In this document: piece by piece, positions 3,484 to 11,222 of the stretch
How the letters are laid out: the number at the start of each line of letters is the position of its first letter
Position numbering within the stretch: position 1 is the first letter of the stretch
DNA from: Candidatus Omnitrophota bacterium
GTDB taxonomy: Bacteria; Omnitrophota; Gorgyraeia; Gygaellales; Gygaellaceae
Reading direction: 5' to 3'
Assembly (NCBI GenBank): GCA_041309125.1
Contig: JBFZAD010000196.1
Coordinates: 1-19,594 of the forward strand
DNA: 19,594 nt
Made by a program: the position numbers and the translations under genes
Notes under the pieces: generated by a model
What the model saw: the letters and a program-made list of their open reading frames with translations, nothing else
Told to the model about the DNA's origin: nothing
The model's database searches: none

Positions 3484-4041
3484 TTAACCTTTGATTAATG
3501 CAAGCGTCTCTGAGCGCGTCTTCTCATTTTCCTTAAAAATACCTCTTACGGCTGAAGTTGTAGTAACCGTGCCTGGCTTTTTTACTCCGCGCATTGACAT
3601 GCAAAGATGCTCTGCCTCAATAACAACCATTACTCCAAGGGGTTTAAGCTTTTCCATGATTATCTCAGCAATCTGTGTAGTGAGCCTCTCCTGAACTTGT
3701 GGCCTTTTTGATAATATATCAACGACCCTGGCAATCTTGCTTAGACCAGTTACCCTGCCGCCTTTTGGTATGTAGGCAATATGCGCCCTGCCTAAAAACG
3801 GCAGTAGGTGATGTTCGCAGCAACTGTAAAGGGGTATATTTTTCAGGAGAACTATCTCCTCGTGTTTCTGATCCAAAATAACCTCTAATTCTTTTCTCGG
3901 ATCTTGTTTTATCCCGGCGAATATCTCCTCATACATCTCTGCCACCCTCCTAGGCGTTTCCAGCAAATCCCGACGTTTAGTATCCTCTCCGATTGCCTCT
4001 AAGATCATCCTTACTGCTCTCTCAATTTTCTTTTTATCCAT
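3484..4041 (-). CDS. folE: GTP cyclohydrolase I (FolE type 1)
   Basis: 185 aa with the hallmark [10 protein letters not shown] zinc/active-site motif, the GLSK.AR segment, QVQERLT and [15 protein letters not shown] lies 5 nt upstream of the ATG. Confidence 0.95.
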
Positions 4042-4062
4042 TCTATCTCCTCATGACTAACC

Positions 4063-4080
4063 CTGCCTGCCGGCAGGCAG
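4063..4080. repeat. 18-nt perfect GC-rich palindrome CTGCCTGCCGGCAGGCAG in the mnmE-folE spacer
   Basis: Read directly: CTGCCTGCC is the reverse complement of GGCAGGCAG. As RNA it could form a 7-bp stem with a CCGG loop. No U-tract follows on the transcribed minus strand. Confidence 0.85.
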
Positions 4081-4094
4081 ACACCAAACACCAA
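4081..4094. repeat. Tandem heptamer ACACCAA x2 (TTGGTGT x2 in gene sense), ending 2 nt from the mnmE stop codon
   Basis: Read directly: acaccaa acaccaa at 4081-4094, directly next to the palindrome. Confidence 0.8.
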
Positions 4095-4096
4095 AT

Positions 4097-5545
4097 CTAT
4101 TTCCCTATGCAAAACTCACTAAATATTCTATCCAACACCTCATCCGAAACAGTTTGACCCGTAATTTCACCCAGGCTCTCAATAGCTAATTTTACATCTA
4201 AAGCAACAAATTCCCAAGACAATTTTTGCCTTAAACTATCAACTGACCTAGCGATTGATTCTTCTGATTTCTTCAATGATTCTATATGCCTGGCATTGCT
4301 TACGATAATACTTTGCGTATTTATAATCTTGCCATGCCAAATCTTTTTTATGATTTCATTTTCTAAATCACCGAGCCCTATATTTCTTGTTGCAGATAGT
4401 CTGATTATCTTTTTAAATTTTTTCTTTAATAGATTAACCTCTATCTTTAATGGTAGGTCAACCTTATTAATAACTACAATAAGTTCTTTGTCCCCAGAAA
4501 GTTTAATTATCTGTTTATCTTGGTTGCTGATTTTCTTACTGCCGTCAAATATCAATAATACTAAATTTGCTTCCTTTAAATATCTTAAGCTGCGCGATAT
4601 AGCCTCTTTTTCAATTATATCCTTTGGCTCAATAATTCCTGCCGTGTCGACAAAGCGTAGTGGCACTCCCTTAATATCAACAAACTCTTCAATGACATCG
4701 CGGGTTGTCCCGGCAATTGGAGTTACAATTGCCCTCTCTTCACGTAAAAGCATATTCAATAGAGAAGATTTACCTACATTTGGCTTGCCACAGATAACAA
4801 CATTAATTCCCTCTCTTAAAATCTTGCCTTCGTTTGAGTTATGAAGGATCGAGATAATTTTGGATTTTAAATTTTTAAGCATTTTCTTTATCTCTTTATA
4901 TGATAGGCTGCTATTATCCTCATCAGGAAAATCAATATTTGCCTCTATTTGAGTCAAGATATCTAGCAGCAATCCTCTTAGAACATTAATCTCTTTTGAT
5001 AGCCTTCCCCTTAATTGATCCAGGCCTAATTGTAGTCCCATGTCTGTCTTTGAGCTCACAATATCTAAAACAGCCTCTGCCTGAGTAAGATCTATTCTGC
5101 CGTTTATAAAGGCGCGCTGGGTAAACTCGCCAGGACGGGCGAGCCTTGCACCATTTGACAAGACTAAATCTAGAATATTTTTTAAAGGAACAATCCCTGA
5201 ATGACAGTTTATCTCAACTATATCTTCGCGCGTGTATGTATGCGGCGCCCTCATTACCGTCACCAGCACCTCGTCAATAATGTTGCGTAGTGCGTAGTGC
5301 GTAGTGCGTACAGCGTTTTCTTTCGACGCACGACGCACGACGCACGACGCACGACGATTAATAATCCAGCCATAATTTGTAGAATAGTTCCTAGCCTTGC
5401 TTAAACTTCTTGCCTTTGCCGATTTAAAAATCCTATCTACAATCTTGATGGCGTCTTTGCCGCTAACCTTAACGATGCCGATTCCGCCTTCCCCTATCGG
5501 AGTCGAGATAGCAACGATTGTATCGTGTAAATCTAATTCAGACAT
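4097..5545 (-). CDS. mnmE: tRNA modification GTPase MnmE (TrmE)
   Basis: The N-terminus is DTIVAISTP.GEGGIGIV. The G-domain has GKPNVGKSSLLN, TPIAGTTRD and DTAGI. The C-terminus ends in the hallmark FCIGK. The ATG overlaps the folC stop by 13 nt. Confidence 0.95.
   Translation of the reverse strand: MSELDLHDTIVAISTPIGEGGIGIVKVSGKDAIKIVDRIFKSAKARSLSKARNYSTNYGWIINRRASCVVRRASKENAVRTTHYALRNIIDEVLVTVMRAPHTYTREDIVEINCHSGIVPLKNILDLVLSNGARLARPGEFTQRAFINGRIDLTQAEAVLDIVSSKTDMGLQLGLDQLRGRLSKEINVLRGLLLDILTQIEANIDFPDEDNSSLSYKEIKKMLKNLKSKIISILHNSNEGKILREGINVVICGKPNVGKSSLLNMLLREERAIVTPIAGTTRDVIEEFVDIKGVPLRFVDTAGIIEPKDIIEKEAISRSLRYLKEANLVLLIFDGSKKISNQDKQIIKLSGDKELIVVINKVDLPLKIEVNLLKKKFKKIIRLSATRNIGLGDLENEIIKKIWHGKIINTQSIIVSNARHIESLKKSEESIARSVDSLRQKLSWEFVALDVKLAIESLGEITGQTVSDEVLDRIFSEFCIGK
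5284..5356. repeat. Inverted pair of heptamer arrays inside mnmE: (TGCGTAG)x3+TGCGTAC, a 12-nt spacer, then (CGACGCA)x4+CGACG
   Basis: Read directly. Arm 5284-5311 and arm 5324-5351 are complementary at 23 of 28 positions, with one A/G mismatch per unit. In frame they encode NRRASCVVRRASKENAVRTTHYALRN. Confidence 0.9.
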
Positions 5546-6954
5546 AGCTTACGTGCCTCTGCTGTAACATAAAGAGAGCCTGTGATTAAAATCAAACTCT
5601 CTTTATTATTATATCTTTTAGTAAGATTTAATGCGCTGGCAACATCTTTTGTAGTATGAAATTCAGACAAAACTTCATTATTAAGGCCACCCAGTGATTT
5701 TAATATAAATTTTGTGCTTGCTGCCCTTGGATTTTTTGATTTTGTAAGAATAATATTCTTACAAATTGGGAATAACTCATTGGCAATTGATTTTATATCC
5801 TTATCTTTGGCTGCGCCAAAAATTAGATTGATACCTATTCTTGAGAATCTTTCTATCAGGGTAGTCTTCAACGCTCTTGCCGAAGCTTGGTTCTGTGCGC
5901 CATCTATTATTATTAAAGGCTTGCGGGAGATTATTTCAAACCGTGAAGGCCACTTTGTGTTTAGTAATCCTTTTCGAATTTTATTTTCTCTGACATTTAT
6001 ACTCTGTTCTTTTAGGGCCTCAATAACACCAATCGCTACAGAGGCATTAATAATCTGATGAAAACCGAGAAATGGAATCTTAACTTTTTTATAATTATTA
6101 AATTTAGAATAGAAATTAAAGGTCTCTCCTGCGCTATCAAAATCCGTTCTCTCAAATAAGATATCTTCACCTATTTCGTACAACTTTGCATTTTTATCCT
6201 TACATCTTTTTTTAATTACTTCTCCTGCAATATCTTCTTGCGGTGCACTAATCACGCATAGCTGTGGCCTGTGGCCTGTGGCCTGTGGCCTTCTTTTTAT
6301 AATTCCAGCCTTTTCCTTTGTAATTCTTTCCAAAGTGCCACCTAATATCGCAGTATGTTCATAGCTAATAGGAGTGAGCGCAGAAACGAGCGGATTCACA
6401 GTATTAGTTGCATCGAGCCTTCCCCCTAAACCAGTTTCTAGCACAACAAAATCAACTTCTTTTTCTAGAAAATACAAAAACGCCAAAGCAGTAAGCACTT
6501 CAAAAAAAGTTAAATTATAATCTTTTTTTCTTCTTTTTATCTCATCTATCCCTATTTTCAATTTTCTCATCAAGTTTGTAAAATCATCGCAGGAAATCAT
6601 TCCTTCAAAATCTGACTGAAGCCTGTGGCCTGTGGCCTGAAGCATGTGGCCTGAAGCCTGTGGCCCAGAAGATAAGATCCTTATCCTCTCTCTAAAATCA
6701 TTCAAATGCGGCGATGTATATAGTCCTACCCTATATCCCGCTTCGCGCAAAATATATGCAATGAATGCACAGGTTGAACCCTTGCCTTTAGTTCCAGCTA
6801 CATGAATACATTCAAGTCTTTCTTGTGGATTCCCAATGAAGTTCAAAAAATATTTGAAGCGACTTAAATCAAATGAGGTTTTATACGGATAGGACGATAT
6901 CTTCTCGTAATCAATGAAGGAATTTAAATAAGATATTGCTTTTTGGAAAGTCAA
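5533..6954 (-). CDS. folC: Bifunctional folylpolyglutamate synthase / dihydrofolate synthase (FolC, Mur-ligase family)
   Basis: P-loop HVAGTKGKGST, SPHL..F.ERI, ETGLGGRLDATN, ISYEHT and DGAQN motifs are all present. Confidence 0.9.
   Translation of the reverse strand: MTFQKAISYLNSFIDYEKISSYPYKTSFDLSRFKYFLNFIGNPQERLECIHVAGTKGKGSTCAFIAYILREAGYRVGLYTSPHLNDFRERIRILSSGPQASGHMLQATGHRLQSDFEGMISCDDFTNLMRKLKIGIDEIKRRKKDYNLTFFEVLTALAFLYFLEKEVDFVVLETGLGGRLDATNTVNPLVSALTPISYEHTAILGGTLERITKEKAGIIKRRPQATGHRPQLCVISAPQEDIAGEVIKKRCKDKNAKLYEIGEDILFERTDFDSAGETFNFYSKFNNYKKVKIPFLGFHQIINASVAIGVIEALKEQSINVRENKIRKGLLNTKWPSRFEIISRKPLIIIDGAQNQASARALKTTLIERFSRIGINLIFGAAKDKDIKSIANELFPICKNIILTKSKNPRAASTKFILKSLGGLNNEVLSEFHTTKDVASALNLTKRYNNKESLILITGSLYVTAEARKLCLN
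6262..6290. repeat. Tandem heptamer (CTGTGGC)x4 inside folC (GCCACAG in gene sense)
   Basis: Read directly: four perfect units at 6262-6289 plus one base. In frame they encode RRPQATGHRPQ. Confidence 0.9.
6616..6664. repeat. Tandem heptamer array of 7 units inside folC: CTGAAGC CTGTGGC CTGTGGC CTGAAGC ATGTGGC CTGAAGC CTGTGGC
   Basis: Read directly. In frame it encodes GPQASGHMLQATGHRLQ. It uses the same core unit as the 6262-6290 array, mixed with a CTGAAGC variant. Confidence 0.9.
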
Positions 6955-6964
6955 AACCTATACC

Positions 6965-8536
6965 TTAATGCCTAAAATGCCTAAATCCTGTTGCCACCAT
7001 AGGAATATTGTACTTATTGCACACCTTTACAATTTCATCATCTGCGATTGAGCCACCTGGTTGGATTACGGCCTTTATGCCATTTCTTATGGCTAGGCTA
7101 ATTGCATCTGCTTTTGGAAAGAATGCATCTGAGGCAAGACAAGCACCTTTAGTCTTAGCCTTTCCCCCGGCCTTTTTTACTGAAATATATACTGAATCAA
7201 CTCTGCTCATCTGTCCTGCACCTATACCAATAGTCTTTGTGCCCTTTGTAAGTATTATGGCATTAGACTTAACATGCTTTGCTATCTTCCATGCAAATAT
7301 CAAAGAATCCATTTGTGCCTTTGTCGGCTTCTTTTCTGTCATTACCTTTAGATTATTTACATCTAAGGTAACTAAATCCTTATCTTGAAGAAGCGCTCCT
7401 CCTGAAACTGTACGAAAGTCCAATTTCTGATTCCTAGACGTATCAAAATCACAAGAAAGTATCCTTAAATTTTTCTTATCTTTTAAAATCTTAAGCGCTC
7501 CTTCTTCATATCCAGGCGCAATAATACATTCTAAGAATCCGCTTCTTGATATTGCCTTTGCAGTATCCACATCAACTTTCCTGTTTAAACCGACTATTCC
7601 TCCAAAAGCAGACAGCTTATCGCAACCCCAAGCCTCAATGTATGCCTTTTTTAATGTCTTTGATTCGCTCGCTCCGCAAGGATTATTGTGCTTTAATATA
7701 ACCGCTGCAGGCCCCTCAAACTCTCTGACTAAATCAAATGCCGAGTTAAGGTCAAGAATATTATTAAATGAAAGCTCTTTGCCGTGCAATTGCTTGCATG
7801 ACGCAAGGCCATAATCTGCCGATGCATCTTTATAAAAAGCGCCTTTCTGATGAGGATTCTCTCCATAGCGTAAAGGCTGAAGCCTTTCGTACTCAAGTCT
7901 TAAAAATCTAGGGAATGCACTTTTCTGTTCGGAATCTTTTTTATCTGCGGCATTCTTTAGAAACTCATAAATTGCAGCATCATAATGTGAAGTCTTCTTA
8001 AAAACTTCAACTCCAAGAGAAACCAATGTCTCATCAGAAAGCGAACAGTTGTTTTTCTTTAATTCCAGGAGGATTGCATCGTATCTTTCGGGATTACTTA
8101 TGACTGCCACCGACCTAGAGTTTTTGGCAGCAGAACGCAACATTGACGGACCGCCTATATCTATATTCTCAATTGCCTCATGCAATGTGACATCAGGCTT
8201 TTTTATAACGCTCTCAAATGGATAGAGATTCACAACAACCATATCAATAAGCCCAATTCCATGATTCTGGATTTGTCTCATATGTTCTTTGTTGTCTCTT
8301 AAAGCCAATAGGCCGGCATGGATCCTTGGATGTAATGTCTTTACCCTTCCATCCAGCATTTCAGGAAAACCAGTATATTCTGAAACATCCTTAACAGGAA
8401 TTTTATTCTGTCTTAATGATTTGGCGGTGCCGCCCGTTGAAAGAATTTCTACTCCAAGACTACTTAAACCTGCTGCAAAATCTATAATTCCCGCTTTGTC
8501 AGACACGCTGATCAGCGCACGTTTTACCTTTAGCAT
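6965..8536 (-). CDS. purH: Bifunctional AICAR transformylase / IMP cyclohydrolase (PurH)
   Basis: 523 aa. The N-terminal MGS-like domain reads KRALISVSDKAGI..FA..L...GVEILSTGGTAK and GRVKTLHP.IH.G. The C-terminus reads SDAFFPF-like (SDAFFPKADAI) and ends TGFRHFRH. Confidence 0.95.
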   Translation of the reverse strand: MLKVKRALISVSDKAGIIDFAAGLSSLGVEILSTGGTAKSLRQNKIPVKDVSEYTGFPEMLDGRVKTLHPRIHAGLLALRDNKEHMRQIQNHGIGLIDMVVVNLYPFESVIKKPDVTLHEAIENIDIGGPSMLRSAAKNSRSVAVISNPERYDAILLELKKNNCSLSDETLVSLGVEVFKKTSHYDAAIYEFLKNAADKKDSEQKSAFPRFLRLEYERLQPLRYGENPHQKGAFYKDASADYGLASCKQLHGKELSFNNILDLNSAFDLVREFEGPAAVILKHNNPCGASESKTLKKAYIEAWGCDKLSAFGGIVGLNRKVDVDTAKAISRSGFLECIIAPGYEEGALKILKDKKNLRILSCDFDTSRNQKLDFRTVSGGALLQDKDLVTLDVNNLKVMTEKKPTKAQMDSLIFAWKIAKHVKSNAIILTKGTKTIGIGAGQMSRVDSVYISVKKAGGKAKTKGACLASDAFFPKADAISLAIRNGIKAVIQPGGSIADDEIVKVCNKYNIPMVATGFRHFRH

Positions 8537-9275: not shown

Positions 9276-11222
9276 TTATTCTTCTGCCTTTTTGTCCACC
9301 TGATTCTTAGCTATAATCTCCTGCATAATTTTATGCGGAACTTCTTCGTAATGGGAAAACTTCATGGTAAAGGAACCTCTGCCTCCTGTCATAGAGCGCA
9401 GGTCATTTGCATATTTAAACATCTCTGCCAAAGGCACCTGGGCCTTGACCACCTGGTTTCTTCCTCTTGAATCCATACCCATAATCCTGCCGCGCCTTGA
9501 ATTTAAATCTCCTGAAATCTGGCCCATAAATTCTTCAGATATGAGTATCTCTACATCCATAATCGGCTCAAGCAATGCCGGGCCTGCCTCAAGCACGGCC
9601 TTACGCAATGCCATGGAACCTGCAATTTGAAAGGCCATATCAGAAGAATCAACCGGATGAAAAGAACCATCATACAGGATTACCTTAACGCTCACCAAAG
9701 GATAGCCTGCCAGGGCTCCTTCTGTCATTGCCTGTCTAACTCCCTTCTCGACAGAGGGAATATAGTTTTTAGGTATTGCACCTCCGAATATCTTGTCTAC
9801 AAATTCAAACTCTGCATCCTTTGGCAAGGGTTCTATCTCTAGCCATACATCTCCGTATTGACCACGGCCTCCGGATTGTCGTTTATACTTACCTTGGACC
9901 TTGGCGCCCTTCTTTATAGTCTCTTTATAAGGTATCTTGGGAGTACCAAGATCAACATCTACGTTAAATCTTTTCTTCATCCTGGCCACCATAACATCAA
10001 GATGTAGCGCTCCTAGGCCCGATACTATTAATTCCTTTGTCTGCAGGTCTCGGCTTACCTTAAATGTATGGTCTTCGCTGCTCAATTTTGAGAGCGCGCT
10101 TGATATCTTTTCTTCATCATGCCTTGACTTTGGCTTTATAGATTCTGAAAAACATGATTCTGGTAATGTAGTCTCAAGGTAAATAAGGCCTGAGTTATCT
10201 TCAGCCAATGAATCATTGGTTGATGTATCCTTTAATTTTGACAGCGCTACAATATCTCCGCATACAGCCTCAGTGACTGCAACCTGTTCCTTCCCCTGCA
10301 ACAGATAAATTGAACCGATTCTTTCTTTTAAATCCTTGTTTATATTATAAAATCCTGTACCAGAGATCAACTTTCCTGCAAATATCCTTATTATGCTAAG
10401 TTGCCCGACGTAAGGGTCTGATATGCTCTTAAATACAAAAGCAGAAAAAGGCTTATCAGGCCCATATACCAATAGTTTTTCTTCTTTGTTTCTGTTTGTC
10501 AATTTTAACTGCGGCCTCTCAAGAGGAGAAGGAAGAAATTTAACTATTGCATCAAATAATTCTTCTATGCCCTTATCTTGAAGACAAGAACCAAATATCA
10601 CAGGAAAAAGCTTCGCATTTTGGACCGCCTTATGAAGGCCCAGTTTTATCTCTTCTTCTGAAAGACTCGCGCCTTCTAAGTATTTCTCAAGCAAGGCATC
10701 ATCCGCTTCGCAAACTGCCTCGATTAAAGACGGATCATTAAGAGATACTAAATGAAATATATTCTTCCCAAAACATTCCCTTAATTCCTCAAGCGTCTTA
10801 TCGGCATTAGTATTTTCTTTGTCTAATTTATTTATAAAAAATATCCTGGCTAAATTATTTTTGTTCAATAACTCCCAGTCCCTTTCTGTACCAACCTCAA
10901 CTCCGGTTACGGCATCTATTACTACAATTGCGCTATCTACGCCAGCACAAGAAGAGATAACCTCTCCTTCAAAATCTGCATAGCCAGGGGTATCAATAAC
11001 CTGAATTGCATATTCTTTAATTTTAAAATTAAGGAAGCTGCTGCTTATAGAGATTTTTCTTTCTATTTCATCCTCGCTGTAGTCACTGACGGTATTGCCC
11101 TCCGGCACAGTTCCTTTGCGGCTTATAGCGCCTGCCTTAAAAAGCATGCATTCCGAAAGGGAGGTCTTACCGCTATGGGCATGGCCAACTAAAATAATAT
11201 TCCTTTTTAGATTTATATCCAT
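9276..11222 (-). CDS. Elongation factor G family GTPase, EF-G2-like paralogue
   Basis: 648 aa. G1 is VGHAHSGKTSL, G2 is GNTVSDY..DEIER, and G3 is DTPGYADF. The NKLD motif is present, and domain IV/V-like segments include GGRGQYG. The short length and the HAHSGKT and PGYADF variants resemble Thermus-type EF-G2 rather than canonical FusA. GGAGAGGA lies upstream of the ATG. Confidence 0.85.
   Translation of the reverse strand: MDINLKRNIILVGHAHSGKTSLSECMLFKAGAISRKGTVPEGNTVSDYSEDEIERKISISSSFLNFKIKEYAIQVIDTPGYADFEGEVISSCAGVDSAIVVIDAVTGVEVGTERDWELLNKNNLARIFFINKLDKENTNADKTLEELRECFGKNIFHLVSLNDPSLIEAVCEADDALLEKYLEGASLSEEEIKLGLHKAVQNAKLFPVIFGSCLQDKGIEELFDAIVKFLPSPLERPQLKLTNRNKEEKLLVYGPDKPFSAFVFKSISDPYVGQLSIIRIFAGKLISGTGFYNINKDLKERIGSIYLLQGKEQVAVTEAVCGDIVALSKLKDTSTNDSLAEDNSGLIYLETTLPESCFSESIKPKSRHDEEKISSALSKLSSEDHTFKVSRDLQTKELIVSGLGALHLDVMVARMKKRFNVDVDLGTPKIPYKETIKKGAKVQGKYKRQSGGRGQYGDVWLEIEPLPKDAEFEFVDKIFGGAIPKNYIPSVEKGVRQAMTEGALAGYPLVSVKVILYDGSFHPVDSSDMAFQIAGSMALRKAVLEAGPALLEPIMDVEILISEEFMGQISGDLNSRRGRIMGMDSRGRNQVVKAQVPLAEMFKYANDLRSMTGGRGSFTMKFSHYEEVPHKIMQEIIAKNQVDKKAEE

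Follow-up and report, generated by a model that had tools for sequence, protein, structure and literature searches.

In-frame heptanucleotide repeat arrays in loops of housekeeping enzymes in Omnitrophota, including a hairpin-forming cassette in mnmE

A cassette built of two opposed arrays of tandem heptanucleotides lies within mnmE, the gene encoding the tRNA modification GTPase MnmE, on a contig of 19,594 nucleotides (nt) from a Candidatus Omnitrophota bacterium (JBFZAD010000196.1; the whole of this stretch is referred to below as the window). This cassette is one allele of a phylum-wide class, namely, in-frame arrays of four to five heptanucleotide units housed in the loops of housekeeping enzymes. 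The 19.6-kb contig is 37% G+C and all of its genes lie on the minus strand, with the best homologues being named Candidatus Omnitrophota. For comparison, loci surrounding mnmE were drawn from genome and metagenome collections, with relatives being given L-numbers (loci) or P-numbers (proteins); a metagenome scan with generic MnmE motifs returned mostly non-Omnitrophota loci. An exact look-up of the window MnmE gave no record, although a protein identical to it is found in the protein collection (P0001), with the closest other MnmE being only ~59% identical.

The window MnmE matches the Pfam families TrmE_N (2.9e-39), MMR_HSR1 (1.4e-27) and MnmE_helical (1.1e-57), as well as the solved MnmE structures 3GEH, 1XZP and 3GEE. 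The cassette (Table 1) was confirmed as being real, hairpin-forming and in frame. Tandem Repeats Finder reported period 7 with 100% matches for both arms (3.9 copies at 5284-5310 and 4.7 copies at 5324-5356), such that the arms are genuine heptamer microsatellites, as a preliminary description of this DNA had proposed. Reading one arm against the other reproduced the complementarity given there, namely, 23 of 28 positions, where the mismatches comprise a regular C/U mismatch in each unit, together with the final C. An inverted-repeat search, moreover, paired the arms over 31 nt at 81% and over 26 nt at 88% complementarity. Because mnmE is found on the minus strand, the 5' arm in the mRNA corresponds to (CGUCGUG)n and the 3' arm to (CUACGCA)n. 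The reading frame is indeed kept and contains no stop, with the mnmE translation including INRRASCVVRRASKENAVRTTHYALRN. When periods of 4-12 were scanned across the window, arrays were detected at period 7 only, the four perfect runs being confined to mnmE and its neighbor.

The ability of the cassette to form a hairpin was considered by comparison with shuffled sequences. The RNA fold of the window element reached -43.3 kcal/mol (z = -3.8), with none of 200 shuffles being as stable, in agreement with the predicted hairpin, and the DNA strand folded with -29.9 kcal/mol (z = -4.3). Among the mnmE loop inserts of at least 80 nt whose DNA was available, 11 of 13 form long imperfect hairpins (z = -2.5 to -6.7). 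Exceptions include L078 (z = +0.9) and the 72-nt insert of L170 (z = -1.5), with other shorter inserts likewise lacking such a fold. At the same loop, L006 (10172-10252; 27 amino acids (aa), z = -3.8) and L053 (10166-10279; 38 aa, z = -5.2) carry in-frame palindromic inserts not composed of heptamers, indicating that the mnmE loop accepts several kinds of hairpin DNA. An Rfam scan of positions 4000-7100 of the window returned no family, with two microRNA-like chance matches remaining below threshold (19-24 bits, as compared to gathering values of 45-56).

To what extent the cassette is peculiar to the window was considered by aligning 120 MnmE homologues. The proteins vary in length almost exclusively within one loop, between YGW[IV] and [IV]IDEV, with this loop comprising 28 residues in 44 proteins, 21 in eight, 14 in eight and five in six, while non-Omnitrophota MnmE proteins present 5-7 residues at this position. 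As such, the element is not the isolated insertion it had seemed to be, since the same loop carries 28 aa (84 nt) in those 44 homologues and shorter inserts in most of the others. Most Omnitrophota MnmE proteins have a cassette here, usually made up of units other than those of the window. The extra loop is itself confirmed, as also reflected in the 117-position TrmE_N profile being stretched over residues 9-150 of the window protein. Its size, originally given as some 25 residues, is better put at ~22, because relatives without the insert have 5-7 residues there.

The loop length classes are spaced 7 aa apart, corresponding to 21 nt or three heptamers. In the 84-nt alleles, a small number of loop codons accompany two sets of four units that are separated by an A-rich spacer, the second set being of a related but inverted heptamer, such that 28 + ~13 + 28 = 69 nt are found on top of a 5-codon loop; in the window, the 81-nt cassette adds ~66 nt. 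The A-rich spacers of the relatives measure ~7-19 nt. The units themselves differ, as in (CGTCGTG)4...(CGCACAG)4 in L161, (GTCATGC)4...(GACACAA)4 in L167, (GGTTCAT)3...(ATGAACC)3 in L164 and (GGTCACA)4...(CTGCAGC)4 in L166. In L005, L169 and L183, the arms comprise 3.5 octamers, again giving a total of 84 nt. The preliminary description had held that a non-repetitive segment of the same length in orthologues would speak against an inserted repeat element. A segment of the same length is indeed present at the same place, yet that segment is itself repetitive, usually involves another unit and is unrelated even where the protein backbones are 97% identical. Since 7 is not divisible by 3, an array can stay in frame only by gaining or losing three units at a time (21 nt, equal to 7 aa). 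A frame lock is thus evident as a pattern of lengths, and we infer that it is also the cause of that pattern.

In terms of protein structure, an AlphaFold model based on 21 homologues was of modest confidence (mean predicted local distance difference test (pLDDT) score 71, predicted template modeling score 0.40). In this model, residues 66-86 present pLDDT values below 50 and lie between strands 54-62 and 89-98, placing the loop in the N-terminal TrmE_N domain, where it had been expected. Solved MnmE structures align up to about residue 46 and then only from residue 83-89. The cassette thus extends a beta-hairpin loop, probably as a disordered surface loop.

Heptamer arrays are not limited to mnmE. 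When arrays of at least 3.5 units were sought, 647 kb of Omnitrophota-type loci yielded 35 arrays of period 7, two of period 8 and none of periods 5, 6 or 9-12. By contrast, 1.24 Mb from other bacteria yielded seven arrays of period 7. With slightly looser settings, 50 arrays were collected from 730 kb of Omnitrophota loci, all 50 lying in frame within long genes. These arrays are 23-41 nt long, mostly 29-37 nt, and are hosted by genes encoding MnmE, FolC, PurH, leucyl-tRNA synthetase (LeuRS, encoded by leuS; two arrays), a pyridoxal phosphate-dependent enzyme and a MiaB-like radical S-adenosylmethionine enzyme; beyond the phylum, a pseudouridine synthase and an M16 peptidase also serve as hosts. 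The units are diverse, with ~40 rotation classes among the 50 arrays, and several units can occur in one genome, the window included. At the same time, some genomes use a specific unit at dispersed loci, as seen in L162, where five arrays contain GACACA[AG] in both orientations, in L164, where three contain GGTTCAT, and in L029; the three sites in the 19.6 kb of the window present different units. A single nucleotide unit can be read in different frames and orientations within one genome, and the arrays are T-poor on the sense strand (17% T). A single restricted vocabulary of units was considered and was weakly supported, with 43 between-genome pairs at a distance of at most 1, as compared to 29 +/- 5 expected.

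Two further arrays of the class, at sites A and B, are found in the folC-like gene next to mnmE in the window. Both are in frame, present the same orientation and have no inverted partner, such that the recurring object is the heptamer array and not the palindrome. Indeed, most arrays in the relatives are likewise single and unpaired, and palindromy, although present in the mnmE element, does not define the class. In relatives, site A is of one of two sizes, 9-12 nt or exactly 33 nt, the latter comprising four units and another 5 nt, with a different unit in each genome, including AGGCCAC, GTTCAGA, AGCCGCC, AGTCAAA and AGACACA. Site B spans 36 nt in the majority of Omnitrophota relatives, with every stage being seen between perfect arrays and complete decay, where periodicity is no longer visible. 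A search of a collection of 5.8 billion proteins with (RRASCVV)x6 returned only tiny spurious open reading frames (ORFs) from high-GC genomes, in a setting where an E-value ceiling of 10 hides matches of 11 residues.

Table 1. Positions of mnmE, its cassette and the neighboring folC-like arrays in the window.
Feature	Position	Strand	Basis
mnmE (tRNA modification GTPase), host gene; 482 aa plus stop	4097..5545	minus	ORF; Pfam
Hypervariable loop cassette, 27 codons (81 nt), between conserved YGWI and IIDEV	5282..5362	minus	Sequence and alignment
5' arm in mRNA, (CGTCGTG)x4.7 (plus strand CGACGCA), encoding RRASCVVRRAS	5324..5356	minus	Tandem Repeats Finder
A-rich spacer, 12 nt, hairpin loop, within KENA codons	5312..5323	minus	Sequence, fold
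3' arm in mRNA, (CTACGCA)x3.9 (plus strand TGCGTAG x3 + TGCGTAC), encoding VRTTHYALR	5284..5311	minus	Tandem Repeats Finder, inverted-repeat search, folds
folC-like Mur-ligase-family gene, immediately upstream of mnmE in operon	5533..6954	minus	Pfam Mur_ligase_M, Mur_ligase_C
folC site A array, sense (GGCCACA)x4.3, encoding RRPQATGHRPQ right after EKAGIIK, unpaired	6261..6292	minus	Tandem Repeats Finder 6262-6291 (100% matches)
folC site B array, 63 nt, nine heptamers alternating GGCCACA/GGCTTCA, encoding SSGPQASGHMLQATGHRLQSD after RERIRIL, unpaired	6610..6672	minus	Tandem Repeats Finder rows 6616-6665

The cassette is dispensable. Many MnmE proteins in the 90% identity cluster of P0038 are cassette-free, being 460 aa long, presenting the loop TAGPK and sharing 90-92% identity with P0038. 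In total, four kinds of allele exist in this cluster, namely, the 28-aa cassette, the same cassette minus HTPHATR, another, octamer-based cassette (P0127) and none. P0124, 94% identical to P0038, shows the loss of exactly HTPHATR, equal to three units. At the DNA level, L182, L181 and L183 are 88-97% identical along the whole of mnmE and are distinguished by clean presence or absence of 69 nt or by total replacement, with divergence around the cassette being raised only within ~30 nt on each side. Where a cassette is retained, it changes 1-4 times faster than does the backbone. As gradual in-place evolution at such a rate cannot explain unrelated cassettes on 97% identical backbones, whole alleles are replaced. 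Slow, concerted change in an ancient array was also considered as the only process at work and was ruled out by backbones of 90-97% identity that carry unrelated cassettes or none.

A possible trace of exchange is found in folC, where L181 (~2120-2400) and L182 (~150-450) differ across a tract of ~280 nt (alignment columns ~620-900) with an identity of ~65%, as compared to 93-95% elsewhere, as estimated by eye from the alignment. The tract starts at the site A array, with the presence or absence of site A in these two loci falling at its edge. Judging by the alignment, the tract seems to have been brought in from a diverged lineage by recombination. When imported flanks travelling with a class of cassette were sought by comparing L183 and L005, no clear signal was obtained.

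The explanation favored here, assigned roughly an even chance of being correct, is that the cassettes are dispensable, frame-locked repeat DNA in a disordered loop, remodelled by slippage and template switching and reshuffled by recombination. As for how the arrays are generated, we infer that they would arise and be remodelled via replication slippage and hairpin-mediated template switching, that short-patch recombination would swap whole alleles between strains and that, between such events, the cassettes would drift neutrally and decay. Neutral drift of retained cassettes is suggested by their 1-4-fold backbone rate, together with the series from array to decay seen at site B. The arithmetic of 7 versus 3 would lock each array at about one or about four units, and such a lock would account for the four-unit size, for the 28-, 21- and 14-aa classes and for the persistence of arrays within genes. 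Intergenic arrays, if any, may be free to shrink away, with those within genes being kept by the frame lock. The hairpin would simply result from the opposite orientation of two related arrays and would need no function of its own, while the cassette as a whole would be tolerated passenger DNA, for which a dedicated function is not required.

Several observations weigh against this explanation. None of the 50 arrays is intergenic, where the coding proxy of 92.5% leaves ~7.5% of the DNA outside long ORFs (chance ~0.02), and neutral junk should accumulate between genes. The step from one to four units (+21 nt) in an essential gene, taken without passing through +7 or +14 frameshift states, has no demonstrated route, and the frame-lock argument is itself interpretive. 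Cassette identity hardly follows the gene tree (r = 0.20 relative to backbone identity), and P0005, P0014 and P0017, 97% identical outside the loop, contain three unrelated cassettes, patterns that a mobile or actively written cassette would equally give. An identical 30-nt (CGTCGTG)4 arm is found in the window and in L161, where the MnmE proteins are 55% identical and the flanking codons differ, and (AGTCAAA)4 at folC site A is common to L161 and L182, which are 65% identical; L162 and L167 also have (GACACAA)4 at the same site. Units are shared (distance of at most 1) in 13 of 42 within-genome pairs, as compared to 48 of 1443 between-genome pairs, a bias not expected from local slippage alone. 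Within a genome, arms are complementary at 15.8 of 21 positions, versus 11.4 of 21 for arms from different genomes, with none of 20,000 permutations reaching as high a value, indicating that the two arms of a cassette are related. Finally, the non-heptamer inserts of L006 and L053, being also palindromic, could reflect selection for a hairpin. Four of these points, namely, the lack of intergenic arrays, the +21-nt jump, the identical arrays in distant genomes and the sharing of units within genomes, keep alive the possibilities that arrays are actively written or that the hairpin is functional.

It is possible, if rather unlikely, that Omnitrophota and, less so, neighboring lineages actively write or replace ~30-nt heptamer arrays in loops of housekeeping genes. 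Here, a dedicated mechanism would install or replace arrays of ~4 units, as well as the 69-nt inverted pair, at loop sites, with the cassette being actively written or homing. Tentative candidates for such a role would be a reverse transcriptase or a primase-polymerase reiteratively copying a short template, together with snap-back synthesis, or a site-specific recombinase or nuclease, and a mechanism of this doubtful kind would operate inside single genomes and perhaps also across them. The clean presence, absence or complete replacement of cassettes between near-identical flanks, the three unrelated cassettes on one backbone, the recurrence of identical arrays at one and the same site in distant genomes whose flanking codons are unrelated, the genome-specific sharing of units in L162 and L164 and the narrow range of array sizes, with the 69-nt pair being in frame by construction, are all as expected were this the case. 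Yet no candidate enzyme gene is found near the arrays in the window, and the sole transposase-like gene seen, resembling a REP-associated tyrosine transposase (RAYT; REP, repetitive extragenic palindromic) gene, in L162, is flanked by a different palindrome. Moreover, no target-site duplications or terminal motifs were found at the arrays, some 40 units occur among 50 arrays, with several being possible in one genome, and short-patch recombination can itself account for allele swaps. If true, the cassettes would represent a novel type of site-specific element, very small and either mobile or templated, or would point to a purpose at the RNA level, and not to passive slippage. Selection of the stem-loop itself at the RNA or DNA level, the peptide being a by-product, is improbable. 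Such a hairpin could, for instance, be an RNase III or other processing site in the purH-folC-mnmE-folE mRNA, a translational pause or a protein-binding site, and would be in line with the significant folds of most long inserts, the covariation of arms across lineages, the conserved 84-nt length and the unrelated palindromes of L006 and L053. However, relatives of 90-92% identity do without the cassette, the 5-21-aa inserts of many lineages cannot form a hairpin, the arrays in folC and other genes are unpaired and no Rfam match was found. Moreover, mismatches between arms are regular, with one or two per unit, alike in every unit and uncompensated, and the arm pairs of L166, L167 and L170 match at only 4-5 of 7 positions. 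This fits arms that were born related and then separately homogenised, and fits strong selection for pairing less well.

The remaining explanations are each very improbable. A family of transposable palindromic elements inserted in frame, of the Rickettsia palindromic element (RPE) or miniature inverted-repeat transposable element type, would be palindromic, in frame, in a loop and polymorphic for presence, as seen here. There is scant reason to favor it, however, as no family sequence is conserved (the three sites in the window differ in unit, as do most arrays of the class), the element measures no more than 21-69 nt, neither terminal inverted repeats nor target duplications were detected and most members of the class are not palindromic. 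Hardly more credible is a lineage-specific functional loop of MnmE merely encoded by repeats. While the modal 28-aa length is conserved and the sense arrays are T-poor, the peptide is unconstrained, being unrelated between 97% identical backbones and absent in close relatives, one unit is read in different frames and orientations within a genome and the segment is predicted with low confidence in the structural model. Heptamer repeats are prone to slippage and a change of a single unit shifts the frame, as would be required of a phase-variable switch toggling mnmE or folC; this too is most doubtful, given that the hosts are housekeeping genes, that all 50 arrays are in frame and that length variants differ by three units. 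Equally far-fetched, an assembly artefact is judged not to be the case, because cassettes of the same architecture are found in dozens of independent assemblies and because two cassettes turned up in identical form in more than one sample or source (L162/L163 and L164/L165). Translational bypassing, prompted by the ATTATT flanking the cassette, was also considered and is not needed, as the cassette can be read through without a stop and the repeat beside it simply codes for conserved I/V residues.

Examination of the surroundings of mnmE revealed the gene order purH-folC-mnmE-folE to be conserved in relatives, whose orthologues of the folC-like gene also match FOL3_C. The rest of the contig follows the order of the relatives as well, encoding ATP-grasp, lysine aminomutase-like, EF-G-like and YchF C-terminal domain proteins ahead of purH, folC, mnmE and folE. 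Two ORFs of the window on the minus strand (943-1431, 163 aa; 13802-14536, 245 aa) returned no Pfam match at E <= 1e-5. In the spacer between the mnmE stop and the folE start, 2.1 copies of the heptamer ACACCAA are found at 4081-4095. No other period-7 run in the window is non-coding, and this one does not have the length to be considered an array.

Elsewhere, a tiny palindrome family, CCTCG(N)CTTCGCTCGGG(A/G), was noted in three genomes (L081 858-916, L169 9256-9305 and L026 14129-14185), being duplicated and nested in frame within the position of the folC site A array in L081 and L169. In L167, an octamer array, (CCAGTTAG)x5, lies between purH and folC (4042-4088) and is the sole intergenic array of such kind seen; the same octamer forms the 5' arm of the mnmE cassette of L169 (10184-10225; GTTAGCCA). 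Runs near mnmE were also seen in L024, with 2.7 units near the 5' end of the gene (10137-10155), and in L076, with 2.9 heptamer units ~100 nt upstream of the mnmE match (9878-9897). L024 further contains an in-frame array of 4.5 units in an M16 peptidase gene (1080-1111). As these are loci of Thermodesulfovibrionia and Nitrospirota relatives, the phenomenon is not strictly limited to Omnitrophota. In IMG/VR, (CGTCGTG)n of 3.5-6 units was found in 10 stretches (L171-L180) from nine viral contigs of 44-65% G+C, including the two ends of one 41.7-kb contig (L176/L180) and two contigs of more than 250 kb. These matches to (CGTCGTG)x3 offered no phage link for the window lineage, as their contexts look unrelated to the window.

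Full-text literature searching returned no account of in-frame heptamer arrays in Omnitrophota or elsewhere, so that the element still stands as undescribed. Heptanucleotide arrays are the most over-represented long microsatellites of bacteria, yet how they originate has not been explained, and they are taken to be intergenic. As such, in-frame arrays in conserved enzymes across a phylum offer a natural system for asking how arrays are born, and the reading-frame lock offers a reason for the four-unit preference other than G-quadruplexes. For annotation and phylogenetics of Omnitrophota, the arrays call for caution, given that such hypervariable loops are repeat DNA and not protein adaptation. 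Were an active mechanism involved, this would possibly be the smallest site-specific cassette system known.

Several known systems resemble the arrays described here. Heptanucleotide simple sequence repeat (SSR) families include the short tandemly repeated repetitive (STRR) sequences of cyanobacteria, GGGAATC in Xanthomonas, GGGGA(C/T)T in Nostoc and TAACTGA in Beggiatoaceae, and are also known in Calothrix (PMC4692102, PMC4679880; see also Mrazek 2007 and Mazel 1990, for SSR/STRR work as cited therein). Such arrays are intergenic and under-represented in coding regions, with their preference for four units being ascribed to G-quadruplexes (PMC4692102, PMC4679880). The Omnitrophota arrays are alike in being tandem 7-nt units, in relatives such as L162, L164 and L029 at dispersed loci with a genome-specific unit, in their preference for about four units, in the occasional inverted pairs able to form stem-loops and in the conservation of position between relatives while length and sequence vary. 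Head-to-tail copies of 7 nt are indeed present in the window at 5284-5310, 5324-5356 and 6262-6291, and period 7 alone is enriched. By contrast, where the known families are mainly intergenic, the 50 arrays in 730 kb of Omnitrophota loci are all genic and in frame, their units are diverse and their lengths change in steps of three units. The G-quadruplex explanation for four units was considered and set aside, since the Omnitrophota units are not G-rich.

RPEs, reportedly described by Ogata and colleagues in 2000, are said to be in-frame palindromes in conserved genes. They form families, 100-150 bp in length, that have a conserved consensus and whose arms are not built of microsatellites. Like an RPE, the mnmE cassette is a translated, in-frame palindrome at a permissive, probably surface-exposed, position of a conserved housekeeping gene and is polymorphic between relatives. 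Unlike an RPE, it is an element of 66-69 nt with tandem-heptamer arms and no conserved sequence, cassettes at the same site being unrelated, and most members of its class are single arrays. The likeness to RPEs first drawn for this cassette thus describes fairly its behavior as a selfish palindrome in a loop but does not extend to an RPE-type sequence family, of which the diversity of units gives no sign. The small dispersed repeats (SDRs) of Nostoc, reportedly the subject of work by Elhai and colleagues in 2008, are tiny hairpins (21-27 nt) often embedded in tandem heptamer arrays, and in this respect recall the CCTCG(N)CTTCGCTCGGG palindromes of L081 and L169. SDRs, however, are defined sequence families that are mostly non-coding, whereas in the window it is the heptamer array itself that constitutes the element. 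Contingency loci that vary in phase through heptanucleotide repeats are known, for example, in Neisseria. These likewise involve heptamer SSRs in coding sequence, where slippage by one unit shifts the frame, yet the Omnitrophota hosts are essential housekeeping enzymes that change in three-unit steps or by replacement of the whole cassette, and no out-of-frame allele was seen among the 50 arrays.

REPs are extragenic single palindromes tied to a RAYT gene (PMC3733652). The window element shares with REPs the nature of a short imperfect palindrome, and, as it happens, GTAG and CGTC, which tag the two REP superfamilies, occur in its units. It is, however, intragenic, and no Y1_Tnp domain or RAYT gene was detected among the 15 window ORFs scanned. 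In L162, a 199-aa Y1-transposase protein (18138-19157) is flanked by REP-like palindromes, AAAGGTGACAGTCACCTTT, and reaches 68.5 bits with the NCBIfam model for REP-associated tyrosine transposases, the cut-off of which is 80 bits, such that at least one Omnitrophota relative has a REP/RAYT-like system. That system is distinct from the heptamer unit of L162, from which the REP-like sequence GGTGACAGTCACC differs; a link between RAYT/REP and the heptamer arrays was accordingly rejected, the window itself containing no RAYT gene. Overall, the Omnitrophota class departs in at least one defining feature from heptanucleotide SSRs and from RPEs alike, while sharing others with each.

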